Shown one piece after another: positions 786 to 61,829 of a DNA stretch of 62,224 bases. The DNA is from a virus (Duplodnaviria; Caudoviricetes). Where the stretch lies: the IMG/VR virus record IMGVR_UViG_3300030331_005246, positions 1 to 62,224 of that record, one strand, 5' to 3'. Numbering within the stretch: the stretch's first letter is position 1; every line of letters begins with the position of its first letter. Position numbers and translations under genes: made by a program. The notes below the pieces were generated by a model. It searched no databases. It saw only the letters and a list, made by a program, of their open reading frames with translations, and was not told the DNA's origin.

Positions 786-3409
786 ATCAAATGACAAAAA
801 GGATTAAACCGGGAGAAGTTAATTTAGATCTCATCCCTTTCGATTGGCCCTTGACACCAGTTGGGATGAATAAAAACCCTTACATTGGTGGATGGCAAGC
901 CAAACCTTTCACTATTGACCAGGTAAAAAAAGAACTCGATTCAGGTAAAGCTGGTGGTGTAGGTTTAATCTCTGGTCCTGTCTATAACAAGCCTTACGGT
1001 TTAGTTTGGGTCGATATTGATGGCCCTACCGTCTATGAAGTCATTCGTCAAGAATCGGGACTGACGGTTGATCAAGCTCTCCCCAGGACCTTGACGATCT
1101 GCAGCGGACGTGAAGGTCGTGAACGCAAACTTTATCTGGTCCCTCAAAAATCCTGGCCCCAGTTCGCCCGTAATAAATACAATTGGCACGGCGAAGGCGA
1201 TGGCGAAAAACTTGAAGTACTTTGGAAGCGGCACCAAGGTGTCCTCATGGGGTTCCATCCAGATACGGATGGTTACTACACTAAGGATGGTGAGGACTAT
1301 TCATTTGTCCACAACTTACCGGTTATTCCTGACTGGATATTAAATGCCATCGCAAAGAAAAATAAAGCACAAGGCAAGATAGCTTTAAGTAACTCACGTA
1401 TCTTTGGTGAGACCTTTGCGATCAATACGCAAATTGGTCACGACAGACAAATCAAAGAAGCAATCAGAGCACTCTGGACTTTAAAACCAGAAGACGCAGA
1501 AGACTACGAAAAATGGTTAACGGCTGGCCAAGCACTGCACTCGATCGACGATTCGCTCCTCGAAGAATGGGATAAGTGGTCACAAATAGGCAGTAATTAC
1601 AGGCCTGGTGAATGCCAACGCAAATGGAGATCGTTCACCAAAGGGGCAGGAATTACTGCTGGCACTCTCTTTGCCAGAGCACAAGAAAATGGTTTTAAGT
1701 TCTCTCAAGAACACACAACCATGGCTGCACCCCATGATGTAATCGACAATGTTCAACGTTTAATTGACGAACTTTATCAAGCTAACGAAATGGAATCAGA
1801 ATCAGAAGAACTAAAGACATTGCCAGATGCAGTCAAAACAGAATTCAAAAGGCCATCCGATAAAAGATCAGGAAAGAAACTCAAGACTGTTAATAAAAAC
1901 GCGCCGCAAAATGAAATAAGAGACAGACTCATTGTCCTCTTTCATAAAGACTTTGTCTTTGATGAAAGCGACAATAAGTTCTACAAGTACGAACACAACC
2001 AACCAGGTATGTGGGCTCCGTTGCGTGAAAACGAAATGAAGCATTACATCTCAGCTGAGCTGGATCAGATGACGAATGAATCATTGCTGCCTCAAGGTTA
2101 TGCATTGGATCTGATCGATACGATGTATAAGACTCTGAAATCCAAACTCGTTTTTACAGAAGAGTGGAACCAAGATAAAAACCTATTGCTGTTTGAAAAT
2201 GGTGTCTACGATCTCGACACCACTGAACTCGGTGGCTTTAAACGCGGCTATTACATCAACCGCACACTGCCTTATTCCTTTGATCCATCAGCTGATGGTA
2301 CGCCCATCATCGAGTGGTTACACTACATCCAAAGTAATGACCACCACAGGGTTCAACTGCTTAGAGCCTGGATGCGAGCTGTCCTGGTTGGTAACACCGG
2401 CATCCAAAAATTCCTAGAGATCATTGGCCCTGGTGGTTCAGGTAAAACATCATTCACCTCTCTCTGTCATGCACTGGTTGGCTGGGATGGTGCTGCTGTC
2501 TCAAGCCTTGAACGCATCGAAAAGAATCGCTTTGAGATGGCCAAGTTGTTCAACAAACGGCTCTGTCTCTTCAATGATGTCAGTCGCTACGGCAGCACTG
2601 TTGATTCGCTCAAGCAACTGACTGGTGCAGACATCGTCAACAACGAGCACAAGTACAAGCAAGAAGAAACCAACTTCCGTTTCACTGGCCTGGTCATGGT
2701 CACCGCCAATGAACAGGTGCAGATGCAGGATCCCACCTCTGGTCTGGCCAGGCGCAGAATCACAATCCCATTCGATGTCGTCTTCAATGGACCTGTCGAT
2801 CAGATGTGCACACTCATTCAGTGTTCACCAGGGCGCATCGAGGGTAAGTTCGCTCCTGACTTGCCGGGTCTGGTCAACTGGTTACTCAAGATGCCAGAGC
2901 AGGAAATGCGTGAGTACCTGCTGGCAACCAATAAGAAGGTTGAGTACATGCGGACGTTCAACATCAAGCAGATGAAGTGCGCCAATCCAATCGCTGCCTG
3001 GATGGATGATTGCGTCATCTTTGATCCTGGCGTCAAAACCTACGTCGGTTCAGGTAAACCAGCACCTAAAGATGCTGATCGTAAATATGCCTCAGCACAC
3101 CACAGGCTCTATGCCAGCTACCTGGAATTCTGTAATGACAACAACTACGGTCAATTCAGACGTGACCGCTTTGTTGATGCTGTCAATGACATCTTCAAGA
3201 ACCAGCTCAAGCTTAATGTCACCATGTCACCAACACGCATTACTTATTTCAATAACATCACCTTGAGAGACAGGCCGGATAGCAATGGCATCGTCGATGA
3301 ATCCAAGCAACATCACTATCCTTCTGTCCTAGAACTCGCTGCTGATCCTGATAAATACCGTGAGTTTTATTCCTCGTTTCCTATAACTAGACAACAAGAT
3401 TACTCTTAA
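782..3409 (+). CDS. bifunctional primase-polymerase / PriCT-2 / D5-like SF3 helicase (P4/D5-type primase-helicase)
   Basis: N-terminal Prim-Pol motifs (WPLTPV..KNPY, VWVDIDG); PriCT-2-like DYEKWLTAGQALH...WDKWS; D5_N-like LLLFENGVYDL; Walker A GPGGSGKT; SF3 motifs LFNDV, MVTANE and RRRITIPF. Confidence 0.9.
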   Translation: MNQMTKRIKPGEVNLDLIPFDWPLTPVGMNKNPYIGGWQAKPFTIDQVKKELDSGKAGGVGLISGPVYNKPYGLVWVDIDGPTVYEVIRQESGLTVDQALPRTLTICSGREGRERKLYLVPQKSWPQFARNKYNWHGEGDGEKLEVLWKRHQGVLMGFHPDTDGYYTKDGEDYSFVHNLPVIPDWILNAIAKKNKAQGKIALSNSRIFGETFAINTQIGHDRQIKEAIRALWTLKPEDAEDYEKWLTAGQALHSIDDSLLEEWDKWSQIGSNYRPGECQRKWRSFTKGAGITAGTLFARAQENGFKFSQEHTTMAAPHDVIDNVQRLIDELYQANEMESESEELKTLPDAVKTEFKRPSDKRSGKKLKTVNKNAPQNEIRDRLIVLFHKDFVFDESDNKFYKYEHNQPGMWAPLRENEMKHYISAELDQMTNESLLPQGYALDLIDTMYKTLKSKLVFTEEWNQDKNLLLFENGVYDLDTTELGGFKRGYYINRTLPYSFDPSADGTPIIEWLHYIQSNDHHRVQLLRAWMRAVLVGNTGIQKFLEIIGPGGSGKTSFTSLCHALVGWDGAAVSSLERIEKNRFEMAKLFNKRLCLFNDVSRYGSTVDSLKQLTGADIVNNEHKYKQEETNFRFTGLVMVTANEQVQMQDPTSGLARRRITIPFDVVFNGPVDQMCTLIQCSPGRIEGKFAPDLPGLVNWLLKMPEQEMREYLLATNKKVEYMRTFNIKQMKCANPIAAWMDDCVIFDPGVKTYVGSGKPAPKDADRKYASAHHRLYASYLEFCNDNNYGQFRRDRFVDAVNDIFKNQLKLNVTMSPTRITYFNNITLRDRPDSNGIVDESKQHHYPSVLELAADPDKYREFYSSFPITRQQDYS

Positions 3410-9656: not shown

Positions 9657-9839
9657 TTACTCATCTAGTGCTTGAAACCAGTAGGTGAAGCCATTGTTCT
9701 CATCAAGCCAAGCTTTGAGAGCATAAGCTTCATTTCTGGTCATGGTTTTACATTCTCTATGGTCGCCAATTTCCCAGCAGACGTTGACACGGTGCTCACG
9801 TAATTCTTTTTTATCCATGATATTAAAGGTTGTGAGCAT
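9657..9839 (-). CDS. small hypothetical protein
   Basis: ORF track; co-directional with the cluster. Confidence 0.55.
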   Translation of the reverse strand: MLTTFNIMDKKELREHRVNVCWEIGDHRECKTMTRNEAYALKAWLDENNGFTYWFQALDE

Positions 9840-10294
9840 TCGTAGTCTTTGGCAATTGCTCTTTGTGATTCTCCTTTTTTCAATCGCTCCATGATGATGG
9901 GATAATCCTCTGGCATTACCTTTGACGGTTTATAACAAGTTGATTGACTTGCTGATCCGATGCGAAGCTGATGCCTGGTGGTATCTGCCTGGCTTTTCCA
10001 CTCTAGGTTATCTGCATGGTTGTTTAATTTGTTTCCATCCTTGTGGTTAACCGTCAAAGAGTGATCGCCTTCTACCCAGGCCAAGGCGACTAGCCTATGG
10101 ATAGAAATTTTCTCGCGCTTTTTTTTATTCCAGAGAGATGTAACTAGATATCCAGTGTTGTCGCGTGTAAGTTTTCTCTCTTTTTCACAGGGATTACCTG
10201 CATAAGTTTTGATGCGCCGTACTTTGCCGCACCGAGACACTTCATAGACGCCCTCGTAACCGACGACAGCTTTCCATTCACACTCTGAAGACAC
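9740..10294 (-). CDS. NUMOD4-HNH homing endonuclease with C-terminal HTH
   Basis: WKAVVGYEGVYEVSRCGKVR (NUMOD4); IHRLVA...VNHKDGNKLNNHADNLEW (HNH_3); SQRAIAKDYECSQPLIS (HTH). Confidence 0.9.
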   Translation of the reverse strand: MSSECEWKAVVGYEGVYEVSRCGKVRRIKTYAGNPCEKERKLTRDNTGYLVTSLWNKKKREKISIHRLVALAWVEGDHSLTVNHKDGNKLNNHADNLEWKSQADTTRHQLRIGSASQSTCYKPSKVMPEDYPIIMERLKKGESQRAIAKDYECSQPLISWIKKNYVSTVSTSAGKLATIENVKP

Positions 10295-18852: not shown

Positions 18853-19440
18853 ATGTCTTTACTAAGTGATACGCAGATCATGGAACGCGCACTTAAGGGA
18901 ATGATTGACCCTTTTGTTCATAGACTAGTGAGGAAAGATGATCACGGTTCAGTTCTTAGCTATGGATTATCGTCTTATGGATACGATATTCGTCTGTCTC
19001 CAAATCAGTGTCTGCTTTTTGGTGGGGTACAGCACGGCGTCTGTGATCCTAAAGACTTTGATCCCGACATCCTGAAGGAGACCGAGTTACATGAAGATGA
19101 GCGAGGCAAGTATTTTATTCTCCCTCCTTATGGTTACTGTCTTGGCGTTGCTGTTGAACGACTCGATCTACCACGTGACATCACTGTTGTCGCTGTAGGT
19201 AAAAGTACGTATGCCAGGGCTGGAATTTTGGTCAACATCACCCCAGCTGAAGCAGGCTGGGAAGGGCATCTGACATTAGAGATCAGTAATTGCACCCCAT
19301 TGTTTAATCGAATTTATGCCAATGAAGGCATTTGTCAGCTGTTGTTTTACCAGGGGGATGATCCGTGTACTCTTACCTACAAGGATCGTAAGGGAAAATA
19401 TCAGAATCAATCTGCTGAAGTAACATTAGCTAAAGCTTAG
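18853..19440 (+). CDS. dcd: dCTP deaminase
   Basis: LSYGLSSYGYDIRL, GKSTYARAGILVNITPAEAGWEGHLTLEISN, YANEGICQLLF, YKDRKGKYQNQ. Confidence 0.95.
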   Translation: MSLLSDTQIMERALKGMIDPFVHRLVRKDDHGSVLSYGLSSYGYDIRLSPNQCLLFGGVQHGVCDPKDFDPDILKETELHEDERGKYFILPPYGYCLGVAVERLDLPRDITVVAVGKSTYARAGILVNITPAEAGWEGHLTLEISNCTPLFNRIYANEGICQLLFYQGDDPCTLTYKDRKGKYQNQSAEVTLAKA

Positions 19441-53039: not shown

Positions 53040-53264
53040 ATGGCTTACACCATCAGCACCAAGCAAGCTGTTTACGAATTCAACGTCGCTTTCATCGAAG
53101 ACAAAGTCTTTACGAAAGAGGACACTGCACCATATGCAGGTGTTGTTTACGTCACCAAGTGGATTCTTAAAGGCTCAGGTTGCAAAGACGCTCATGTCTC
53201 CACCAGCACTGACCTGACTTCCGCTTGTAAGTGGATCAAACAGCTCAAAGCTTCCAACAAGTAA
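53040..53264 (+). CDS. early hypothetical protein
   Basis: First gene of the cassette array. Confidence 0.7.
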   Translation: MAYTISTKQAVYEFNVAFIEDKVFTKEDTAPYAGVVYVTKWILKGSGCKDAHVSTSTDLTSACKWIKQLKASNK

Positions 53265-53335
53265 CCACAGGCGTGACGCTGGAGCCTCGAAGGCTCCGGT
53301 TACTTATTGCCTCCAGCAGAGATAGGCACTGCACA
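53259..53335 (+). ncRNA. family-A structured element, copy 1 (three-way junction plus pseudoknot)
   Basis: AAGTAA/TTACTT closing stem, CAC-AGGC-GTG, GCTGGAGCC-TCGAA-GGCTCCGGT; then TGCCT-CCA-GCAG-AGAT-AGGCA-CTGC. Confidence 0.75.
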
Positions 53336-53348
53336 ACAGGAGATTCCT

Positions 53349-53600
53349 GTGACATACGTCGAACGCTTATCCGATGATGAGCTATGGACCGCTGCACTCA
53401 CTCTCGATAGTGAAGGCAACTACGTGTTCGGAGCCGCAGGCAAATTTGTTCTATTGGATCTTGATAGTCATGTGATGTCTTATTACATCAACACTGAAGA
53501 TCCTCTGCCTGAAGACTTCTATCACCACCCCAGCGATGCTGACTACGAAAACAGCATCTACGACGCTCAACTCGCTTATGAAGTGAGTACATCCAGCTGA
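53349..53600 (+). CDS. early hypothetical protein
   Basis: GTG start after AGGAG; in frame with track ORF 53307. Confidence 0.65.
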   Translation: MTYVERLSDDELWTAALTLDSEGNYVFGAAGKFVLLDLDSHVMSYYINTEDPLPEDFYHHPSDADYENSIYDAQLAYEVSTSS

Positions 53601-53670
53601 CCACCAGCGTGATGCCGGGGCCTCGAAGGCCCTGGTCAGCTCTTGCCTCCTGTGGAGATAGGCACCACAT
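53596..53670 (+). ncRNA. family-A structured element, copy 2
   Basis: GCTGA/TCAGC, CAC-CAGC-GTG, GCCGGGGCC-TCGAA-GGCCCTGGT; pseudoknot stem 2 changed to GTGG/CCAC. Confidence 0.75.
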
Positions 53671-53687
53671 CAAACCAGAAACCAACC

Positions 53688-53876
53688 GTGATCAACCAAC
53701 GCACGTATTTCGGCTTCGTTGCTACATGCATCGCACTCGTCGGAATAGGCGGTTATGGCTCCGTCCAACTCCTCGACAAAGCCACCGCACACCAGTGCAG
53801 CACCCATGACTGGCCTGCTGAGAAGCATGCAATCCATGTCGAGTGGTGCGAGCACAACAACTACCCAACCAACTGA
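53688..53876 (+). CDS. early small membrane protein
   Basis: GTG start; TM segment YFGFVATCIALVGIGGY. Confidence 0.6.
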   Translation: MINQRTYFGFVATCIALVGIGGYGSVQLLDKATAHQCSTHDWPAEKHAIHVEWCEHNNYPTN

Positions 53877-53947
53877 TTCGTTCAAGCGAGTGACCAGGTG
53901 CAAACCCTGGTCCAGTTATTGCCTCCAGCAGAGATCGGCACTGCACA
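53871..53947 (+). ncRNA. family-A structured element, copy 3
   Basis: AACTG/CAGTT, TTCG-TTCAAG-CGAG, ACCAGG-TGCAAAC-CCTGGT; TGCC..GCAG..GGCA-CTGC. Confidence 0.75.
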
Positions 53948-53961
53948 ATTTGATTTACTTC

Positions 53962-54120
53962 ATGAAAGTCCTTTATGAAGCAGTAGCAATCACCTCGGAC
54001 TATCAAATGATCCGATTTGGACCTCCATTCAAGACAGAGGAAGACGTGTGGTACTGGCTGCACTTTGAATGTGATTGCTGCCCCGAACATCGTTCAATCG
54101 AAGTTCTTCCAGTCGTCTGA
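53962..54120 (+). CDS. early hypothetical protein (52 aa, MKVLYEAVAITSD...)
   Basis: ATG 15 nt after the element. Confidence 0.6.
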   Translation: MKVLYEAVAITSDYQMIRFGPPFKTEEDVWYWLHFECDCCPEHRSIEVLPVV

Positions 54121-54195
54121 CTGATTCGTACAAGCGAGTGACCAGGTGCAAACCCTGGTCCAGTCCTTGCCCACAGCGGAGATGGGCACCGCACA
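54119..54195 (+). ncRNA. family-A structured element, copy 4
   Basis: GACTG/CAGTC closing stem; pseudoknot TGCCCA/TGGGCA with GCGG/CCGC (double covariation). Confidence 0.75.
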
Positions 54196-54210
54196 CAACA
54201 GGAGAATCCT

Positions 54211-54393
54211 GTGACCACTACCACTCGCCCCGCACGTTCTGACTGGGACGCCATCCACGTTCCTACTCGTGAAGAGTGCGGCGAGATCGTCTTCTGTCAG
54301 ATCAAGAATCTGATGGAGGACGGTTACTCCCAAACTCTCACCCGAGAGCACGCAGCAGAGATTGCAAAGTATGCAATCAGGCTGCTCAGCTGA
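54211..54393 (+). CDS. early hypothetical protein
   Basis: GTG start after AGGAG. Confidence 0.65.
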   Translation: MTTTTRPARSDWDAIHVPTREECGEIVFCQIKNLMEDGYSQTLTREHAAEIAKYAIRLLS

Positions 54394-54465
54394 TCCGTCA
54401 ACGCGGTCATCCCCGGTGCAATGCCGGGGTCAGCTTTTGCCTCCAGCAGAGATAGGCACTGCACA
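54388..54465 (+). ncRNA. family-A structured element, copy 5
   Basis: AGCTGA/TCAGCT, CCG-TCAACG-CGG, CCCCGG-TGCAATG-CCGGGG; pseudoknot identical to copy 1. Confidence 0.75.
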
Positions 54466-54479
54466 TTGTATTGCACACT

Positions 54480-54683
54480 ATGAAATGTTTTTCACTTCCA
54501 GTTGTTATTCCAACAGCTGTATTTGTTGCAGCAACTGCTATAGCTGCAGCTATTCCTCAACCTGCATGTGCACAACAAGCACAATGCTGGAACGAAATGC
54601 ATTACTACCAGAAGACGTGGGGTGGCTGCATACCAGTCCAACGCTTTCCAAACGGAAAGACCTTGCATGTCTGTTGCCGCTGA
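54480..54683 (+). CDS. early small secreted or membrane Cys-rich protein
   Basis: Signal-like hydrophobic N-terminus; multiple Cys. Confidence 0.6.
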   Translation: MKCFSLPVVIPTAVFVAATAIAAAIPQPACAQQAQCWNEMHYYQKTWGGCIPVQRFPNGKTLHVCCR

Positions 54684-54707
54684 CCCACAATTCCATAGTT
54701 AACACAT

Positions 54708-54749
54708 AGTCCTGAGCATGACTCTAAACTGCTCACGACTCAACTCAAC
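54708..54749 (+). ncRNA. family-B pseudoknot element, copy B1
   Basis: AGTC-CTGAGCAT-GACT-CTAAAC-TGCTCA-CGACTCAACTCAAC. Confidence 0.8.
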
Positions 54750-54763
54750 CGTTAATCATTCCA

Positions 54764-54982
54764 ATGACTCAATCCCCAGCGAGTTACATCAGCGCCATTG
54801 CATTCGGTATTGCCATTGGCCTCATCGGTTGTGTAAGCGGTCAACGCTTACTCAACAACCACAACACTGTGCAATGCGCTAACAAGAATGCAACGCACAA
54901 GCTTGTTACTTACAGCTCATACCTTGGCGATGCCAAATATTGTATGAACAAGCGTGCTTTTCATTACGGTCCTGCTCACTAA
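54764..54982 (+). CDS. early small membrane protein
   Basis: TM segment ISAIAFGIAIGLIGC. Confidence 0.65.
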   Translation: MTQSPASYISAIAFGIAIGLIGCVSGQRLLNNHNTVQCANKNATHKLVTYSSYLGDAKYCMNKRAFHYGPAH

Positions 54983-54991
54983 TTCCTCACC

Positions 54992-55168
54992 ATGACACCA
55001 CTCAACCTTCGCAACAAGTTCAGAACAGCAACACATCTGACAGCATCCGGCTTGATGAAAGCCGGTGATGCCGTTGCTGACATGCAGATGCCAGATACAG
55101 AATCTTTTGTACTTGGCATCAAGAAAATCCGCCGTAACATAGCTCAGACCATTCAACCCAACGATTGA
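54992..55168 (+). CDS. early hypothetical protein (58 aa)
   Basis: Read manually: MTPLNLRNKFRTATHL... Confidence 0.55.
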   Translation: MTPLNLRNKFRTATHLTASGLMKAGDAVADMQMPDTESFVLGIKKIRRNIAQTIQPND

Positions 55169-55175
55169 ATCCTTT

Positions 55176-55406
55176 ATGCAAGAAAGTTACACTGAGCGTC
55201 ACCCAGACAACAACATCAGCATCGAACTACCGATGCATGAAACCATCACGACATACCTACCGAACGGTTATCGGTTTGTCGTGGAAAACACAGGTGATCA
55301 AATCATCACTCGTTATTACAATCCCAATGACGAGTGTACCCGTGAAATCACCTGTGACTATAGCGGCGAGGTCCGTTACATCAACTTTCCAACCAAATCA
55401 GTTTAA
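55176..55406 (+). CDS. early hypothetical protein
   Basis: ORF track. Confidence 0.6.
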   Translation: MQESYTERHPDNNISIELPMHETITTYLPNGYRFVVENTGDQIITRYYNPNDECTREITCDYSGEVRYINFPTKSV

Positions 55407-55432
55407 TTATTCCTTAATCTTTCCTATTTGTT

Positions 55433-55606
55433 ATGTCCCCGCTCAACGAAACCCAAAAGACCACTTTGCCACTTATCGCACTGTGTGCCGTCGCAACACC
55501 GTTCGTCGGCCCAGTAGCACTCCTTGGTGGTCTTGGCATGACTGCATACTACTGCGCCAAATCCAACAAGAACCAATCCGATGACTCAACACACCCTAAG
55601 AACTGA
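55433..55606 (+). CDS. early small membrane protein (57 aa)
   Basis: Read manually: MSPLNETQKTTLPLIALCAVATPFVGPVALLGGLGM... Confidence 0.5.
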   Translation: MSPLNETQKTTLPLIALCAVATPFVGPVALLGGLGMTAYYCAKSNKNQSDDSTHPKN

Positions 55607-55733
55607 GGCCACACATCAATGGGGCAACACTACATTTCGTGTTGGCAATCGTTTTTACAACGTTGACTCGCACAAATCACCAGGCCTACGTAACAAATTA
55701 GGCCGCGCACTCATGAAGTTACTACACCTTTAA
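55581..55733 (+). CDS. early hypothetical protein (50 aa)
   Basis: Read manually: MTQHTLRTEATHQWGNTTFRVG...; stop immediately precedes element B2. Confidence 0.5.
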   Translation: MTQHTLRTEATHQWGNTTFRVGNRFYNVDSHKSPGLRNKLGRALMKLLHL

Positions 55734-55738
55734 TTCAT

Positions 55739-55766
55739 AGTCCTGAGTATGACTTTAAACTGCTCA
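55739..55766 (+). ncRNA. family-B pseudoknot element, copy B2
   Basis: AGTC-CTGAGTAT-GACT-TTAAAC-TGCTCA (U-G wobble in stem 2), followed by an extra hairpin. Confidence 0.8.
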
Positions 55767-55834
55767 TGTCAACAGAACGGCATTTACTTAACGTATCCGT
55801 TCTGACTTGTTAACTCAACTTAACTCTACTTGTT

Positions 55835-56122
55835 ATGTCCGACCATGCACACCGCATCATGATGCGTCAGCTCAATGCTGACGACAACATGATACACGCA
55901 GACGAGCAGTATGTCCACCAGCAGATCCTTGCTGAGCATGCATACCATCAAGAACAGGCTATGCGAGAAGGCATGCCTGAACCTAGTGAGACTCAACGTT
56001 CAGTGAGTGATCGATGCTTTAGCAACTGGATTTCATTGCTAAGTAACACAGGATCACATCGATCTCGCTGGTCAGAAGACGATGGTGACCTGCTCGACTA
56101 TCGTTCGGAGGATGTGATATGA
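55835..56122 (+). CDS. early hypothetical protein
   Basis: ORF track. Confidence 0.65.
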   Translation: MSDHAHRIMMRQLNADDNMIHADEQYVHQQILAEHAYHQEQAMREGMPEPSETQRSVSDRCFSNWISLLSNTGSHRSRWSEDDGDLLDYRSEDVI

Positions 56123-56243
56123 GTGACATGAAACTCCGACTTCTCGATCACACCAGATACAACGTTGAATATGTGGAGGAAGACACCCTCACCATTGTCG
56201 TTGCCCTGGTCTCCTGCTTCATCACTATTCTTCTTGACTTGTT

Positions 56244-56708
56244 ATGGCCACCATCACAGAAACAATCTTCGAGTTCAGAGTCCCCAGTGAATACGAAGTT
56301 TACAACAAGGGACTCTTTAATTTCATCGAACGTTATCCCAGAACAGGCGCAGCTCGTTACTGGCTCGAACAATACAACTATCTCACAGAGTTCAACGGCA
56401 AAGAACCAACAGCAATTCACATCCACCTTGTCTGGCAAGTCTACGTCTCACCTGCAGAAGGTGGCTGTTGGGACGAACGGCGTGAGCCCATCTACAACCA
56501 CCACGACCACAAAGACGACCAGATCAAAGAGGTCTCAACCATCTGTGTCTACAACAAGAAACAATGCATCAGAGAATGCCTTGCCCTCACCCAACACCAT
56601 GACCTTGCTTATCAACCAAGAATCGACACCACAGCAGACAACGTCGCCGTCGACGTAACGCTTGACCATGGCTACTGTCAAGCCAAGTACCCTTCTCCTT
56701 ATTGTTAA
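56244..56708 (+). CDS. early hypothetical protein
   Basis: ORF track; SPAEGGCW motif. Confidence 0.65.
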   Translation: MATITETIFEFRVPSEYEVYNKGLFNFIERYPRTGAARYWLEQYNYLTEFNGKEPTAIHIHLVWQVYVSPAEGGCWDERREPIYNHHDHKDDQIKEVSTICVYNKKQCIRECLALTQHHDLAYQPRIDTTADNVAVDVTLDHGYCQAKYPSPYC

Positions 56709-56714
56709 TTCACC

Positions 56715-56948
56715 ATGAACATTACTGTCCAAACAACAGGTCTTAAACCTGATTCAATGATTTACGATCTCAGACTTGATCGTGATGAATTCAAAGCTTT
56801 GTACTTTACTCTTGTAAGGTATCTTGAATCCCAGGATCCTAATGATGAGATTGACTTCCATAATGGCTACAAAATGTTTAAAGATATACACACTAGAAAG
56901 ACGGCGTATATATTAAGACACCTTGAATTAATAGGTGCCAAAGAATAG
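56715..56948 (+). CDS. early hypothetical protein
   Basis: ORF track. Confidence 0.6.
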   Translation: MNITVQTTGLKPDSMIYDLRLDRDEFKALYFTLVRYLESQDPNDEIDFHNGYKMFKDIHTRKTAYILRHLELIGAKE

Positions 56949-57053
56949 ATTAACTAACACAGCTATGCCTGGGCAGCACATCGTGCGTAAGTCCCAGGCT
57001 TTGTTGTAGTTATTTATATAAGTATTTCTTATGTCCCGCTACTTGTTTTAGCT

Positions 57054-57419
57054 ATGTCAATTCAGTTTCCATTGTATCGACTTCTCTATACCGAGAAGCT
57101 TGATCCTCCACATGACCATGTCACCAGATATCACACAATCGAGTGGTATCAAACCGACAAAGAAGCTCAATCAGCTGCCAAACGTTGGAACAAGAACCAC
57201 AGATACCACACCTCTGGGGTTCAGGCATGGCATGAAGCTGACTTCAAAGCTGAGTACAAACAATTCCAGGACGACTTCGATCCCTCACCCCAGGTCTACG
57301 ACGACTGGGCATCATGCCCTGACTACGACTCCTGGTTATACGACTGGATCGATGAGCGTAAGTATTACCACTTTGAACCTGCAGCACCACAATCACAACA
57401 ACTCACCAAACAATCATGA
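57054..57419 (+). CDS. early hypothetical protein
   Basis: ORF track. Confidence 0.6.
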   Translation: MSIQFPLYRLLYTEKLDPPHDHVTRYHTIEWYQTDKEAQSAAKRWNKNHRYHTSGVQAWHEADFKAEYKQFQDDFDPSPQVYDDWASCPDYDSWLYDWIDERKYYHFEPAAPQSQQLTKQS

Positions 57420-57588
57420 AAGTCTTCATTAATTTCTCCACAGATAACGCTGCGTTCGATCGACCAGATGATTACGCAGAGTTTGAACGCATCATGGAAG
57501 AACTCAAGACCACAATTAGCCATAACAACAGTGGTGTTATCCACGATATCAATGGCAACAAGATTGGACTATGGAGTTGGGTTGACTC

Positions 57589-57810
57589 ATGAAATACAAA
57601 CCCCATTTCGACATGCTTACAGCACGTGAGCAATTAATCGTAGACATGAACTTCATCGTTGAAGACATTACGTATGGCGCACTCAGTCCAAGCGAAATGA
57701 ATACTTTAACTCGCAAACTTTGTGATGCGGTGTACAAACACTTACCTACACCAACAGTGCCATGTGGCACTGAAATAATTTATTGGCGTTTTGTTGACTT
57801 ACCTAATTGA
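57589..57810 (+). CDS. early hypothetical protein, paralog of 57814..58002
   Basis: KPHFD.L.A.EQL...LTRKLCDAVYK..PTPT shared. Confidence 0.7.
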   Translation: MKYKPHFDMLTAREQLIVDMNFIVEDITYGALSPSEMNTLTRKLCDAVYKHLPTPTVPCGTEIIYWRFVDLPN

Positions 57811-57813
57811 CCC

Positions 57814-58002
57814 ATGGAAAACAAACCTCACTTCGACAACCTGAGAGCATGCGAGCAACTAATGGAAGACATTGAATCCATCATTGAAAACTTTTGGTAT
57901 GCGACCTGGCCTGAAGGTCAATTTCTAGAAGATAGAAATGACTTGACCCGCAAGCTTTGCGATGCCGTTTACAAAAACTATCCCACCCCAACACCTGATT
58001 GA
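57814..58002 (+). CDS. early hypothetical protein, paralog of 57589..57810
   Basis: Shared motifs with the upstream gene. Confidence 0.7.
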   Translation: MENKPHFDNLRACEQLMEDIESIIENFWYATWPEGQFLEDRNDLTRKLCDAVYKNYPTPTPD

Positions 58003-58005
58003 CCC

Positions 58006-58233
58006 ATGATTGAACTCAACGGCTTTTGCACTGATGAACCCTTCACATTTGACGAGGGCATGACAGAGGAAGACTTTAGATCTGAGGTCATCAAGTGTCT
58101 CCAAAATCAAAGAGATGATCTTGATACTTTGTTTAATGCATTTGTTCTTATGGCAAATATGGCCGATCTTGACCCCCATGCGCTGTTCCAAGCAGCAAAG
58201 CTCATTCAAAGAGACATCTCCACACCTGATTGA
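58006..58233 (+). CDS. early hypothetical protein
   Basis: Flanked by CACACCTGATTGACC(C/T)ATG junctions. Confidence 0.65.
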   Translation: MIELNGFCTDEPFTFDEGMTEEDFRSEVIKCLQNQRDDLDTLFNAFVLMANMADLDPHALFQAAKLIQRDISTPD

Positions 58234-58236
58234 CCT

Positions 58237-58419
58237 ATGAACCACGAAAACCGTGACACCCTCATCTACAACTACGCAACGCAGGTTGTTGATGACATGG
58301 ACTTCAAAGATCTCTGCGTTTTTGCAGTCGAGACAATTGAGAAAAACATGGAAAGCTACAGCGATGAAGAAGTCATCACTGAAATCAAGGACCACTATCC
58401 ACACTTACTTGAGGATTGA
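58237..58419 (+). CDS. early acidic hypothetical protein
   Basis: YATQVVDDMDFKDL...YSDEEVITEIKDHYPHLLED. Confidence 0.65.
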   Translation: MNHENRDTLIYNYATQVVDDMDFKDLCVFAVETIEKNMESYSDEEVITEIKDHYPHLLED

Positions 58420-58543
58420 CCCATGACCTACCGTAGGTCTTATTAAAGGTTTAGGTGATTCCCTTTAATAAGAAAACTTCTTATTAAAGTTTTGCCCGTT
58501 ACTCCAGTTTAGGAGCAATCGAGCCTCACGATTAATCCAATCA

Positions 58544-58585
58544 AGTCCTGAGCATGACTTTAAACTGCTTACTACTCAACTCAAC
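58544..58585 (+). ncRNA. family-B pseudoknot element, copy B3
   Basis: AGTC-CTGAGCAT-GACT-TTAAAC-TGCTTA-CTACTCAACTCAAC. Confidence 0.8.
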
Positions 58586-58598
58586 TTGTTTCTAACTC

Positions 58599-58772
58599 AT
58601 GAAACATTTCAAAGTCGTTTACGAACAGCACCTATGGGTTGATGGCCATGGCTACTCAACCAGCAGGCGTTTTCAAGACATTTACGCCAAAGACATGGAC
58701 CACGCCCTAGGTAAATGGTCAGTCATGCAGCTTGACAACCAATCACTGATGTTTATCATCGAACAACCCTAA
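58599..58772 (+). CDS. early hypothetical protein (57 aa)
   Basis: Read manually; fills the B3-B4 interval. Confidence 0.6.
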   Translation: MKHFKVVYEQHLWVDGHGYSTSRRFQDIYAKDMDHALGKWSVMQLDNQSLMFIIEQP

Positions 58773-58777
58773 TCAAT

Positions 58778-58819
58778 AGTCCTGAGCATGACTATAAACT
58801 GCTCACTACTCAACTCAAC
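58778..58819 (+). ncRNA. family-B pseudoknot element, copy B4
   Basis: AGTC-CTGAGCAT-GACT-ATAAAC-TGCTCA-CTACTCAACTCAAC. Confidence 0.8.
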
Positions 58820-58839
58820 TTGGTTCTAACTATTGACCC

Positions 58840-59019
58840 ATGACCAAACGACAATTCCCCTTGATGCTCAATGAGGAGCAAGCCGAGTTTGTGCATAACG
58901 CTGTCTGCGGTGTCCCCGACGATCAACGCAAGGACGGCGACGAGGAGGTTCTCGGTTACCTACTCGAAGAACTCGACATAATCCTTTGCCGTGTTCAACT
59001 CTCTGATCCCTTTGATTGA
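58840..59019 (+). CDS. early hypothetical protein (59 aa)
   Basis: Read manually: MTKRQFPLMLNEEQAEFV... Confidence 0.6.
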   Translation: MTKRQFPLMLNEEQAEFVHNAVCGVPDDQRKDGDEEVLGYLLEELDIILCRVQLSDPFD

Positions 59020-59022
59020 CTT

Positions 59023-59214
59023 ATGGACTACACACTCACAGACAAACAACGCATCCTTATCGTCAACGCATTGAAAAAATACCATGCGTGGCTTGGTATA
59101 AGAGCGGAGCAAGCCTTGTACGAGAAAAACCAAGATGAAATCCTTTGGCTCATTGATCTTATTGATCTAAACCAATACATCACGCTATCAGATTCACGAC
59201 CCACACCTGATTGA
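59023..59214 (+). CDS. early hypothetical protein
   Basis: MDYTLTDKQRILIVNAL. Confidence 0.65.
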   Translation: MDYTLTDKQRILIVNALKKYHAWLGIRAEQALYEKNQDEILWLIDLIDLNQYITLSDSRPTPD

Positions 59215-59217
59215 CCT

Positions 59218-59388
59218 ATGGACTACACACTCACAGAAAGACAATGCGGAATGATCATCAACGCATTAAACATTTATGTCGACAACTGTCCACGTTCATA
59301 CATACAAGAAGTCGAAACAATCATTGAGCTTCTTGATGACGAAGTTCATGCTCACTACCACGGCATTAAATTCGCCACACTTAACTAA
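59218..59388 (+). CDS. early hypothetical protein, paralog of 59023..59214
   Basis: MDYTLTERQCGMIINAL, read manually. Confidence 0.6.
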   Translation: MDYTLTERQCGMIINALNIYVDNCPRSYIQEVETIIELLDDEVHAHYHGIKFATLN

Positions 59389-59396
59389 CAACAACC

Positions 59397-59600
59397 ATGC
59401 CAACTACCAGAGTTTACGTTTGCGTCGATGCTGCTCATCAATCAATTGAACTTCAATCAGACAATGGCACCGACGCAATAGAAGATGCAGGCCTAGAAAT
59501 TGTCAGTGACATTACTGATGATTGTGCTGGTGATTTCAGTGACATCCTGACACTGGAACAATTGCTATCTTCTGAATCTAACTTCGTTCCTCACGATTAA
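59397..59600 (+). CDS. early hypothetical protein
   Basis: ORF track. Confidence 0.55.
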   Translation: MPTTRVYVCVDAAHQSIELQSDNGTDAIEDAGLEIVSDITDDCAGDFSDILTLEQLLSSESNFVPHD

Positions 59601-59604
59601 TCTA

Positions 59605-59859
59605 ATGAAATTTTCTGATCTTCACTTCAAACCAATGAAACATACGCGAGCAGGCCAACAAGCCAAGCATAGATTCAGTAATGGTTGGTCGATCTCAATC
59701 ATTACTGGGTGTGGCTGGATGTATACGTCACCTAACAGTCCTTATGAAGTTGCAGTTATTAAACCAACAGGTGAATTCTTAAACGATGATGTTCTTAGTC
59801 ATCAAAGCAAAGAAGACATTGATGCTCTTTTGAAAAAGGTAGGTAATATCCCTACTTAA
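59605..59859 (+). CDS. conserved phage hypothetical protein
   Basis: MKFSDLHF...FSNGWSISII...YEVAVI. Confidence 0.7.
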   Translation: MKFSDLHFKPMKHTRAGQQAKHRFSNGWSISIITGCGWMYTSPNSPYEVAVIKPTGEFLNDDVLSHQSKEDIDALLKKVGNIPT

Positions 59860-59864
59860 TCAAT

Positions 59865-59906
59865 AGTCCTGAGCATGACTTTAAACTGCTCACTACTCAA
59901 CTCAAC
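59865..59906 (+). ncRNA. family-B pseudoknot element, copy B5
   Basis: AGTC-CTGAGCAT-GACT-TTAAAC-TGCTCA-CTACTCAACTCAAC. Confidence 0.8.
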
Positions 59907-59918
59907 TTGTTTCTAGCT

Positions 59919-60395
59919 ATGGGCCTCGACATGTACCTCAAAGGTGTCAAGTACTTTACTACTTGCACCCATGAACACGAAGCTGGTGTTGGCTTCGTCA
60001 GTAAGATCAACCCACTCTACCAGTCAATCGCTGAACATTTTGACATCGAATGCGACGATGAGTTAGGCGTTGGTGAAATCCACATGCCAGTCATGTACTG
60101 GCGCAAGGCCAACCAAATTCACAAATGGTTTGTTGACAACACTCAAGGTGGTGAAGACAAGAATTGTGAGCCAACTCCTGTCAGCAAAGAACAGCTTCAA
60201 CAATTGCTTGATGATGTCACCTTTGTGCTCGAGCACAAAGATCCATCAGTGCTGCCAACCCAATCTGGATTTTTCTTTGGCAGCACTGACATTGATGATT
60301 ACTATTGGGAAGACTTGAACAACACACGTTCAGCTCTAGAAAAACTATTGAAAGCTGATAAGTTTGAAAGCTTCATCTATCAGTCTTCCTGGTAA
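59919..60395 (+). CDS. conserved phage hypothetical protein (MGLDMYL...YWRKANQIHKWF family)
   Basis: MGLDMYL, YWRKANQIHKWF, LPTQSGFFFG, YQSSW. Confidence 0.8.
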   Translation: MGLDMYLKGVKYFTTCTHEHEAGVGFVSKINPLYQSIAEHFDIECDDELGVGEIHMPVMYWRKANQIHKWFVDNTQGGEDKNCEPTPVSKEQLQQLLDDVTFVLEHKDPSVLPTQSGFFFGSTDIDDYYWEDLNNTRSALEKLLKADKFESFIYQSSW

Positions 60396-60404
60396 TACCT
60401 CTCA

Positions 60405-60446
60405 CGTCCTGAGCATGACTTTAAACTGCTCACTACTCAACTCAAC
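60405..60446 (+). ncRNA. family-B pseudoknot element, copy B6
   Basis: (C)GTC-CTGAGCAT-GAC(T)-TTAAAC-TGCTCA-CTACTCAACTCAAC. Confidence 0.8.
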
Positions 60447-60458
60447 TTGTTTCTAACC

Positions 60459-60983
60459 ATGGGTGAATACTGCTACCGACTGGCTGACAGACAGTCAGTC
60501 AAGATGGGTACATGCGCTGACATGTACTACCTCAGATTTGAAGACATGGCTGATGTAGAACCAGAAGAAGGTTCATCGTTTGGCTCACGCTTCCGTCTAC
60601 CTTGGCCTGATGAAGACCAGTACTTGCCTGGTGACTACTGCGATGGACAAGCACAAGGTGGCTACAGAGAATGCGCTCTTGTTGGTGACAGAATTAATGG
60701 CAAACTTCGATTCTTCCAACCAGCACCAGAAGAAATGCGTGAGACAGGTCCTTTCTACAGACTCACTGCTGTTCGCTGGTATGACAATTGTCTTGTCCCT
60801 GTTGTCTCTAGCTACATGAAAGAAGATGATAGTCAATTCAATTACATGCAGAGATGGCGTGACACCTGGCCCAATGTCCTGCCATACATTGGCAGCACTG
60901 GAGTCAAACTAGAACTCAAAGGCAGGCTGTACATGTACAGCATCATTACCAATGTGACTCATGCATTTACTTATGCATCGTAA
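60459..60983 (+). CDS. early hypothetical protein
   Basis: MGEY...VKMGTCADMYYLRFED...RFRLPWPDED. Confidence 0.7.
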   Translation: MGEYCYRLADRQSVKMGTCADMYYLRFEDMADVEPEEGSSFGSRFRLPWPDEDQYLPGDYCDGQAQGGYRECALVGDRINGKLRFFQPAPEEMRETGPFYRLTAVRWYDNCLVPVVSSYMKEDDSQFNYMQRWRDTWPNVLPYIGSTGVKLELKGRLYMYSIITNVTHAFTYAS

Positions 60984-60992
60984 TTAATCTCA

Positions 60993-61032
60993 CGTCCTGA
61001 GCATGACTATAAACTGCTCATGTCAACTCAAC
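60993..61032 (+). ncRNA. family-B pseudoknot element, copy B7
   Basis: (C)GTC-CTGAGCAT-GAC(T)-ATAAAC-TGCTCA-TGTCAACTCAAC. Confidence 0.8.
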
Positions 61033-61042
61033 TCTACTTGTT

Positions 61043-61780
61043 ATGATCAACAACATCGATGCAATCAAATCCAAGATTGCCAAACTGTTGCGTATGCAGA
61101 CCTCAGGTAATGCCAACGAGGCTGCCAATGCTGCTGCCAAGGTGCACCAACTCTGTCAAGAGTATGGCCTCTCACCTGATCACATCGATCCCAACGCAGA
61201 CTCAACAGCACACCAACCCACCCATTGGTTCATGAATTTCATGGGTAAACGTTGCAACGCTGAGCAAACAATGCTGCTAGATGGCATTGTTAAATACTTC
61301 AATGGCAAAATAATTCTCAATGATCATGAGGGTCAAAAATGTTGTGAAGTATTTGCCAGTGAAGGCAGACGCATTGAAATCGAGATTTACTTTGAGTATC
61401 TCATTGAGACCATGACCAAACAGGCTGATGAAACCAGAGAGGAAAGAGATCCCTACCACGAAGACCCTACCTTCAAACGTAACTTCCGCAAAGGCTTTGC
61501 CGAGAAAGTTCAACGCAGGTTAATTGACATGCGTAAAGAAGAACAGATCGAAGCGGAAGACAACAACCACCAGGAAGCACTCGTTGCTCTCAGCCGTGGC
61601 AAGCAAGAGTTTACTCGTAATCTAGACTTGCTCAAACGCACCCATCCCAGACTCAAAAAGAGTAGTGGGTGGACTAATTCCCATGGCAATGGTGGCAGCA
61701 GCGGCAGAGCTGCTGGCTCACGTGTTGGACTCAACCGCCAAATGGCCAAAGGCAGCTCACGTCAGCTGAAAGGTTACTGA
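61043..61780 (+). CDS. DUF2786-domain protein
   Basis: IKSKIAKLLRM..SGNANEAANAAAKVHQLCQEYGL N-terminal domain; FRKGFAEKVQRRL; GRAAGSRVGLNRQM C-terminus. Confidence 0.8.
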   Translation: MINNIDAIKSKIAKLLRMQTSGNANEAANAAAKVHQLCQEYGLSPDHIDPNADSTAHQPTHWFMNFMGKRCNAEQTMLLDGIVKYFNGKIILNDHEGQKCCEVFASEGRRIEIEIYFEYLIETMTKQADETREERDPYHEDPTFKRNFRKGFAEKVQRRLIDMRKEEQIEAEDNNHQEALVALSRGKQEFTRNLDLLKRTHPRLKKSSGWTNSHGNGGSSGRAAGSRVGLNRQMAKGSSRQLKGY

Positions 61781-61786
61781 TGACAT

Positions 61787-61829
61787 CGTCCTGGACATGA
61801 CGTTAAACTGTCTACATACTCAACTCAAC
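61787..61829 (+). ncRNA. family-B pseudoknot element, copy B8 (covariant)
   Basis: CGTC-CTGGACAT-GACG-TTAAAC-TGTCTA-CATACTCAACTCAAC. Confidence 0.8.

Follow-up and report, generated by a model that had tools for sequence, protein, structure and literature searches.

A tRNA-like junction joined to an exchangeable pseudoknot or hairpin between small cyanophage genes: a candidate mRNA processing and 5′-end protection module

The window analysed here is the whole of a 62,224-base IMG/VR virus record (IMGVR_UViG_3300030331_005246; Duplodnaviria, Caudoviricetes), estimated to be 79% complete, whose sole named DNA relative is S-EIVl, a polar freshwater Synechococcus phage. Its + strand carries five tandem copies of a two-part RNA module between positions 53255 and 54466, each located between two small co-directional open reading frames (ORFs). 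The first part is a Y-shaped three-way junction of ~47 nt (the Y element) that resembles part of a tRNA, and the second is a compact structure that ends a short distance before the next start codon. This second structure is a 26-nt pseudoknot in the window and a plain hairpin elsewhere. We propose, with a probability of roughly 40%, that the module combines a processing signal for a host nuclease with a 5′-terminal structure that protects the downstream mRNA and positions its ribosome-binding site. As part of this explanation, and with the same confidence, the repeats would belong to the + sense early transcript of an S-EIV1-like cyanophage. The elements sit between small early genes of freshwater and marine cyanophages, and the family is represented in >170 viral contigs as well as in three Synechococcus phage isolates belonging to two unrelated lineages.

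Covariation of the pseudoknot

The 26-nt motif TTGCCYMCWGYRGAGATVGGCACYRCA begins at positions 53307, 53643, 53919, 54167 and 54437 on the + strand, with no sixth copy in the window and no match in 100 dinucleotide shuffles of it. From its 5′ end, the motif comprises the 5′ strand of stem 1, 3 nt, the 5′ strand of stem 2, the sequence AGAU, the 3′ strand of stem 1, 0-1 nt, and the 3′ strand of stem 2. A sequence-only reading of this stretch had proposed a covarying H-type pseudoknot with an invariant AGAT joiner upstream of each start codon, and the stem sequences that it quoted for copies 1, 2, 4 and 5 are all correct on re-reading. Copy 3, which it left undescribed, carries AGATCGGCA and consequently has one U-C mismatch in stem 1.

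When IMG/VR was scanned with a pattern that fixes 18 bases of the motif and leaves three base pairs free, matches were listed for at least 118 loci and at least 154 copies. Of the 154 viral copies listed, 151 are complementary at each of the three free pairs. The same pattern has 29 matches in 596 Gb of prokaryote genome contigs, compared to ~17 expected by chance according to our own arithmetic. These serve as a natural null, and the three pairs are complementary in only one of the 29. This genuine match (locus L153) lies on a short phage-like scaffold that carries the whole module. The scaffold, of 8,955 bases, is binned with a Crocinitomicaceae metagenome-assembled genome, has a downstream ORF typical of phage contigs, and probably represents a phage contig binned with a bacterial genome. 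The motif is specific to viral contigs and essentially absent from the 596 Gb of prokaryote genomes.

Among 140 viral copies of the motif, 99.8% of cells pair, compared to 26.9-45.2% when the 3′ partners are slid along the sequence. An unbiased set was assembled by leaving both stems free and using as anchors the upstream Y element together with AGAT and AC at the right distance, which yielded 140 pseudoknots. In this set, 1257 of 1260 cells pair, and five of the nine base pairs show compensatory changes, namely 3-21 (G-C to A-U), 6-18 (U-A, C-G, U-G), 10-26, 11-25 and 12-24, which upholds the earlier claim that both stems covary. AGAU is invariant in all 140 of these standard-length copies, as is A27C28, but the invariance claimed for the joiner does not extend to rarer subtypes, which have GAU or CUU. 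Some rarer subtypes have a longer loop 1 (5-6 nt) with the same topology, and stem 2 can also take the forms CCGG/CCGG and AGGG/CCCU or be extended to 5 bp (GCAGG/CCUGC, GCUGG/CCAGC, GUAGG/CCUAC). One subtype has GCGC/GCGC and is without AGAU.

A tRNA-like three-way junction precedes the pseudoknot

The sequence-only reading treated the pseudoknot as a unit of its own. It is indeed a small RNA pseudoknot at a fixed distance 5′ of start codons, but it is better read together with the adjoining Y element, which is located directly upstream in every window copy and in most relatives. The Y element consists of a closing stem (P1), a short hairpin (P2) and a 7-bp hairpin with a 7-nt loop (P3). Across 63 ungapped modules, 98.1% of the 1701 cells in the five helices of the complete module pair, compared to 84.5% for shuffled sequences and 35-42% for slid partners, and double changes occur in 17 of the 27 pairs, including 5/5 in P1 and 6/7 in P3. 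There is a marked excess of G-U over A-C cells in the module helices (161 versus 8), which shows that selection acts on the + sense RNA. When the collected loci were searched with a covariance model built from the complete unit (R1), 280 matches were obtained, of which 241 are distinct and 108 lie outside the original pattern. The minimum free energy (MFE) fold is the Y in 204 of 232 distinct modules; in the window, the Y shape is absent from the single-sequence MFE fold of copy 2.

Several features of the Y element recall the acceptor stem and T-arm of tRNAs. Of the 204 Y-folding modules, 106 have a combined P1 and P3 length of 12 bp and 181 fall within 11-13 bp. No nucleotide intervenes between P3 and the 3′ strand of P1 in 172 of them, and 137 have exactly 1 nt between P1 and the UU of UUGCC. 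The end of P3 reads GG-UGCAAAC-CC or one of the variants GGUUCGAUUCC and GGUUCAAUCCC, with the general form GG-UNCRA-CC, and these variants equal the tRNA T-arm consensus except at position 55. The loops are UGCAAAC, UUCGAUU or UUCAAUC, closed by two G-C pairs; in the 63 ungapped modules these two pairs precede the loop in 62, and the loop itself shows no variation at U33, G34, C35 and A37. An acceptor-like stem on a T-arm-like hairpin with a stack of ~12 bp and a T-loop consensus is the geometry of t-elements and of mascRNA, discussed below. The Y element resembles a tRNA acceptor/T-arm minihelix followed by a single discriminator-like nucleotide.

A three-way junction that has many invariant nucleotides, is abundant in phage contigs and lies where a cut would make sense might also, alone or together with the pseudoknot, constitute a new class of self-cleaving ribozyme. 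This is very unlikely, given that there is no match to the hammerhead, twister, pistol, hatchet or HDV ribozymes even at E-values up to 10, and that the two main Y variants share only the T-arm-like part and have no common core. A hammerhead-like core in the Y junction was considered and rejected, as the sequence CUGAUCC is a misfit and Rfam gives no match.

A mutual-information scan of 79 ungapped modules returned only the predicted pairs and linkage within P3, with no loop-loop long-range pairing. The possibility that stem 2 alternatively pairs with an identical GCGG in P2 was rejected because stem 2 covaries and P2 does not. A conserved peptide was likewise rejected as the source of the motif. 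A TTG at the first motif base is in frame with the downstream ORF in copies 1-2 and not in copies 3-5, and start distances of 16, 17 and 18 nt are about equally common across relatives.

The 3′ position is occupied by exchangeable structures

The structure that follows the Y element is a pseudoknot in 158 of the 241 distinct modules and the hairpin UGCCAC-aauccc-GUGGCA in 37. Among 38 modules of other types, about 30 by eye carry the hairpin GCCACAC-acuga-GUGUGGC, and the remainder are rarer forms. The stem of this last hairpin also covaries (GCCACCC/GGGUGGC, GCCUCUC/GGGAGGC and others). In a separate sample of 55 new loci chosen by the Y element alone, the 51 distinct modules include 16 pseudoknots, 31 hairpins and four that are neither, and nearly all of the 3′ modules begin with UUGCC or UUACC.

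In five loci (L009, L012, L029, L058 and L074), pseudoknot modules come first within an array and hairpin modules are located downstream, a hint that the type of module may be linked to its place in the operon or to the time of expression.

A second repeat family is found before small ORFs further along the window (54695-61814), with copies at 54695, 55726, 58531, 58765, 59852, 60392, 60980 and 61774. It forms a 4-bp hairpin, AGUC-CUGAGCAU-GACU, which in the copy at 61774 is closed by CGUC/GACG. At one other locus (L192), the loop of this family, flanked by UGAC/GUCA, is located directly behind a Y element, and the second family therefore looks like another type of 3′ module that is used here without the Y.

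Position relative to genes

The module follows a co-directional ORF in 225 of the 230 distinct modules with enough upstream sequence. The upstream stop codon, which is TGA in 179, falls within the 5′ strand of P1 in 150 of these 225, at 44-47 nt upstream of U1. On the other side, an ORF starts within 45 nt downstream of 134 of 151 pseudoknot modules. The start distance is 14-18 nt in 108 of the 134, with a characteristic value of ~16-17 nt, and 17 starts at 3-5 nt represent an upstream in-frame ATG that belongs to the Shine-Dalgarno hairpin described below. In the window, the gaps between the last base of stem 2 and the start codon are 16, 19, 17, 18 and 17 nt (copies 1-5), which corrects the spacing of 14-18 nt that had been given for these copies.

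The small proteins encoded behind the pseudoknot form 55 clusters that are unrelated to one another, and neither these nor the neighbouring small ORFs have an informative Pfam or PHROG match. Those behind the window modules are ORFans of 52-83 aa with no PHROG family.

Between the pseudoknot and the gene, the start codon can pair, in a hairpin, with the triplet that precedes the Shine-Dalgarno sequence; the two partners change together (CAC...GUG, CAU...AUG, CAG-GAG...CCUGUG). A stable version is present in 55 of the 134 pseudoknot modules, including copies 1 and 4 of the window (Table 1), and it would mask the ribosome-binding site.

The sequence-only reading had likened the motif to small riboswitch aptamers, and the compact pseudoknotted fold, the invariant unpaired residues next to the ribosome-binding site, and this downstream hairpin sequestering the Shine-Dalgarno sequence and start codon would all suit an aptamer that controls translation in response to a small ligand. 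However, the hairpin is clear of the pseudoknot and no switching helix is apparent. Moreover, the motif matches no Rfam class, is genuine in only one of the 29 prokaryote-genome matches, and is located upstream of 55 ORFan families that are unrelated to one another, not of related metabolic or transport genes or the genes of one pathway. Plain hairpins of 6-7 bp also fill the same slot. Since the motif is confined to phages, lies before unrelated genes and can be exchanged for plain hairpins, we regard a riboswitch as highly improbable, and the proposed likeness is not retained.

Searches for known RNA classes, promoters and terminators

Rfam 15 gave no match at gathering score anywhere in the window. 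When positions 53200-54520 were searched at E-values up to 10, three matches were obtained (E 5.5-8.3), all far below their gathering scores and none to a riboswitch, ribozyme, tRNA or tmRNA family. This agrees with the earlier statement that the pseudoknot belongs to no named class.

A scan of the window for sigma-70-like promoters found none at any of the modules, and a scan for terminator-like hairpins listed one at copy 1 only, of the five. Promoters of this type and intrinsic terminators were rejected as an explanation on this basis. A T7-type RNA polymerase (PF00940) is absent from the window and from complete S-EIVl, whereas the S-SBP1 control was positive. An 8-mer in the 3′ half of the pseudoknot, TGGGCACC, present at 54183-54190 in copy 4 (motif positions 17-24) and in most relatives, also lies within the 15-bp promoter of Syn5 RNA polymerase as given in a passage of PMC3950665. 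Because no PF00940 polymerase is found in the window or in complete S-EIVl, a T7-type (Syn5-like) promoter was rejected, and the likeness is probably a coincidence.

These results also bear on whether the repeats are DNA cassettes like the PeSLs of T4-like phages, which are described in PMC4122927 as composite terminator/promoter motifs that mediate shuffling. The RNA folds would then be incidental to a terminator stem-loop and early promoter that restart transcription and allow ORFs to be exchanged. In both systems, single small ORFs of a plastic early region are bordered by short, conserved, composite motifs that are likely hot spots for shuffling. Here, single small ORFans of a variable early region lie between near-identical repeats arranged in arrays, many different ORFs are attached to one and the same module, and Y variants occur in mixed combinations with 3′ modules. 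However, the cyanophage module differs in having no detectable promoter, in conserving RNA pairing, and in belonging to phages that are not T4-like. With neither a promoter at any module, a terminator beyond copy 1, nor a T7-type polymerase, and with compensatory changes in five helices and a G-U bias that require selection on the + strand RNA, we give this explanation little weight. A role as a recombination linker may nevertheless coexist with an RNA function.

Another explanation is control of transcription in cis, in which the Y element acts as a ribosome-dependent pause or terminator at the embedded stop codon and RNA polymerase is the target of the pseudoknot, by analogy with the put RNAs of phage HK022. 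The stop codon inside P1 in most modules, the GC-rich P3 followed by CAGUUAUU, and the arrangement of the elements in tandem along one operon would fit such a mechanism. Against it, the U tract is poor, the hairpin-type replacements of the pseudoknot are very unlike one another, and there is no likeness to a known antiterminator RNA in Rfam. We consider it quite improbable.

A possible processing signal and 5′-terminal cap

In the explanation that we favour, the first part of the module would extend from the upstream stop codon, with P1 and the long arm stacked over ~12 bp and capped by a T-loop-like structure in mimicry of an acceptor/T-arm minihelix. The second part would start 1 nt later with the invariant UU, fold compactly on the UGCC/GGCA helix, and end 16-17 nt before the next start codon. 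Enzymes that process tRNA ends read the 12-bp stack, the T-loop, the direct junction of T-stem and acceptor, and the single discriminator. Presumably, a host nuclease of this kind would cut just past the discriminator-like nucleotide and before the UU. RNase Z would be the best fit, with RNase P or RNase E as alternatives; cyanobacterial tRNA genes mostly do not encode CCA and are matured by RNase Z, and uridines just past the discriminator stimulate RNase Z in B. subtilis. Such a cut would leave the upstream mRNA with a stable tRNA-like 3′ fold, and no more than 1-2 unpaired bases would precede the pseudoknot or hairpin at the start of the downstream mRNA. There, the pseudoknot might shield the 5′-monophosphate end from RNase E/J and keep the short 16-17 nt leader and the ribosome-binding site clear of upstream sequence.

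A more tentative extension is that the tRNA mimics punctuate an early polycistronic mRNA, which tRNA-end nucleases of the host would divide into monocistronic units, whose non-classical pseudoknot or hairpin caps would resist 5′-end-dependent decay and set the distance to the ribosome-binding site. Cap types with their own conserved loops could then define separately regulated gene sets.

Several observations weigh against the processing proposal. If RNase P were to cut 5′ of P1, the upstream gene would lose its stop codon, and thus full excision of the tRNA type looks harmful. ARAGORN finds no tRNA or tmRNA in the window or at the modules in 48 loci, and the Rfam tRNA model is without a match even at E-values up to 10 (53200-54520), indicating that the mimicry is partial. 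A few pseudoknots, for example that of L027, occur without a Y element, 16 nt past a stop codon. RNA coverage of the window, from a single weak run (X1), is confined to 54739-54990 and lies outside all modules. Each stem of the pseudoknot alone contributes about -4 to -5 kcal/mol, and single-sequence folding energies are unremarkable (z -0.4 to -2.8), such that the case rests on covariation.

The geometry of the pseudoknot is also unusual. A classical coaxial H-type fold has ~0 nt between the 5′ strand of stem 2 and the 3′ strand of stem 1 and at least 2 nt across the shallow groove of stem 1. Here, 0-1 nt separate the two 3′ strands and 4 nt (AGAU) occupy the junction, an arrangement that disallows the classical fold. 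The H-type assignment of the sequence-only reading consequently stands in that the loop of the first helix pairs downstream and both helices covary, but not with respect to the loop lengths of a coaxial stack. With the long connector on the wrong side, our geometric reasoning suggests two short helices that lie side by side or alternate. Covariation is compatible with both arrangements, and the simultaneous presence of stems 1 and 2 is inferred.

Finally, the loops of the 3′ modules (AGAU, AAUCCC and ACUGA) are far more conserved than the stems. This exceeds what a generic protective structure would need and points to a specific partner, which makes operator sites for phage or host RNA-binding proteins the main rival. 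Such proteins would act in trans to switch early gene sets at the level of translation, in the manner of T4 RegA and gp32. Constant loops on variable stems (AGAU and A27C28 in 140/140 copies, with AAUCCC and ACUGA recurring), the fixed distance to the start codon, a regulon-like set of many unrelated genes under one element, and the occurrence of pseudoknots without the Y element are all as expected for operators. However, no candidate RNA-binding protein is apparent, the downstream and neighbouring small ORFs being without informative Pfam or PHROG matches, and the Y element, the invariant UU, and the 1-nt spacing are left unexplained. On balance, the data neither support nor exclude such operators, and we consider them less likely than processing, with which protein binding may coexist.

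Comparison with known systems

The proposed function is akin to that of tRNA-like processing signals combined with structured 5′ leaders. The module stands out by the topology of its knot, which is unusual, and by comparative support that is cleaner than usual. tRNA-like signals for mRNA processing include the t-elements of plant mitochondria, mascRNA at the 3′ end of MALAT1, and the tRNA punctuation of animal mitochondria. The phage module shares with these an acceptor-stem and T-arm mimic between or behind coding regions, a 12-bp stack, a T-loop-like cap, and a single nucleotide before the putative cut. It differs from t-elements and mascRNA in its double-stranded DNA phage host, in the one short hairpin that replaces the D and anticodon arms, in the stop codon inside the acceptor-like stem, and in the second structured module that always follows. 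Cleavage, moreover, is only putative for the phage module. The host RNase III sites between the early genes of phage T7 are likewise repeated intercistronic structures at which the early transcript would be cut to leave structured ends, and the Y element also occurs in T7-like cyanopodoviruses. Unlike the T7 sites, however, it is a three-way junction of ~47 nt rather than a long irregular hairpin, and another enzyme is expected.

The T4 gene 32 operator, to which the sequence-only reading also compared the motif, is a small phage pseudoknot upstream of a start codon as well. This operator is gene-specific and autoregulatory, being located upstream of the gene for the single-stranded-DNA-binding protein and bound by its product, and we know of no Rfam model for it. 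The cyanophage element instead precedes 55 unrelated ORF families at 16-17 nt from the start and is tied to a tRNA-like element. Membership of the gene 32 operator family is not supported, as the downstream genes are diverse ORFans of 52-83 aa.

For the proposed cap, the E. coli ompA leader provides an example of a 5′-terminal stabilizing stem-loop, and the exoribonuclease-resistant pseudoknots of flaviviruses and plant viruses are a further parallel. In each case, a compact structure would sit within 1-2 nt of the processed 5′ end. The cyanophage pseudoknot differs from the exoribonuclease-resistant RNAs in comprising only 26 nt and having no known ring-like fold, and protection by it is only proposed.

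No description of the element was found in the literature on tRNA-like or RNase P-related phage intergenic elements, cyanophages, and S-EIV1, at the level of listings and abstracts. A 2023 study (PMC10690425) reports ~10,000 unnamed viral structured-RNA candidates from IMG/VR, and the T4 gene 32 translational operator pseudoknot is mentioned there. Its main-text passages do not describe the present motif, which may be numbered in its supplementary tables.

If the proposal is correct, the module would constitute a compact, portable and widespread gene-expression cassette of ~80 nt, and would reveal how early expression is organized in cyanophages without their own RNA polymerase. It would represent natural mRNA processing guided by a tRNA mimic in a bacterial virus, a phage counterpart of mitochondrial tRNA punctuation joined to an exonuclease-resistant RNA cap. 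It would also add a very small non-classical pseudoknot fold whose exceptionally clean covariation makes it suited to structural study. The cassettes could serve as intercistronic insulators in cyanobacterial engineering. Whatever it does, the module strongly merits consideration as a new Rfam family, and it explains a large share of the “intergenic repeats” in this phage group.

Module copies in the window and occurrences in isolated phages

Table 1. Coordinates of Y elements, pseudoknots and start-codon hairpins in the window.
Feature	Position	Strand	Description
Y element, copy 1	53259..53305	+	MFE fold; R1 match 53255-53336, 43.7 bits; P1 holds the TAA stop (53262-53264) of ORF 53040-53264
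Pseudoknot, copy 1	53307..53332	+	Stem 1 UGCCU/AGGCA, stem 2 GCAG/CUGC, joiner AGAU
Hairpin CAGGA-gau-UCCUG	53337..53351	+	Encloses Shine-Dalgarno GGAG and first base of the GUG start (53349) of ORF 53349-53600
Y element, copy 2	53597..53639	+	P1 CUGACC/GGUCAG; R1 match 53591-53672, 42.3 bits; TGA stop 53598-53600 of ORF 53349-53600 within P1
Pseudoknot, copy 2	53643..53668	+	Stem 2 GUGG/CCAC; next ORF GUG start 53688
Y element, copy 3	53871..53917	+	P1 AACUG/CAGUU, P2 AUUCGU/GCGAGU, P3 GACCAGG-UGCAAAC-CCUGGUC; TGA stop 53874-53876; R1 match 93.4 bits
Pseudoknot, copy 3	53919..53944	+	Stem 1 with a U-C mismatch in its loop-side pair; ATG start 53962
Y element, copy 4	54119..54165	+	TGA stop of ORF 53962-54120 overlaps first P1 bases; R1 match 96.3 bits
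Pseudoknot, copy 4	54167..54192	+	Stem 1 UGCCC(A)/(U)GGGCA, stem 2 GCGG/CCGC
Shine-Dalgarno/start hairpin CAGGA-gaa-UCCUG	54199..54213	+	GUG start (54211) of ORF 54211-54393
Y element, copy 5	54388..54435	+	P1 AGCUGA/UCAGCU with TGA stop 54391-54393 inside; R1 match 73 bits
Pseudoknot, copy 5	54437..54462	+	Sequence identical to copy 1; ATG start 54480

Among isolated phages, the Y element is found in the T7-like marine Synechococcus podoviruses S-SBP1 (three copies) and S-CBP42 (one copy). Two of the S-SBP1 copies are located among early ORFs, and the third, like the S-CBP42 copy, is upstream of the major capsid gene. These last two occupy unannotated spacers at 19294-19345 in S-SBP1 (L154) and ~3213-3250 in S-CBP42 (L155). 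In S-SBP1, an unannotated small ORF (~19197-19304) ends at a TGA inside P1.

Elsewhere in the window, Pfam matches include a Prim-Pol/D5 primase-helicase, a terminase large subunit, a lysozyme, a dCTP deaminase and an HNH endonuclease. An ORF on the − strand (9740-10294) in the replication and structural part of the genome carries NUMOD4 and HNH_3 domains and, from its domain content, likely encodes a free-standing homing endonuclease.

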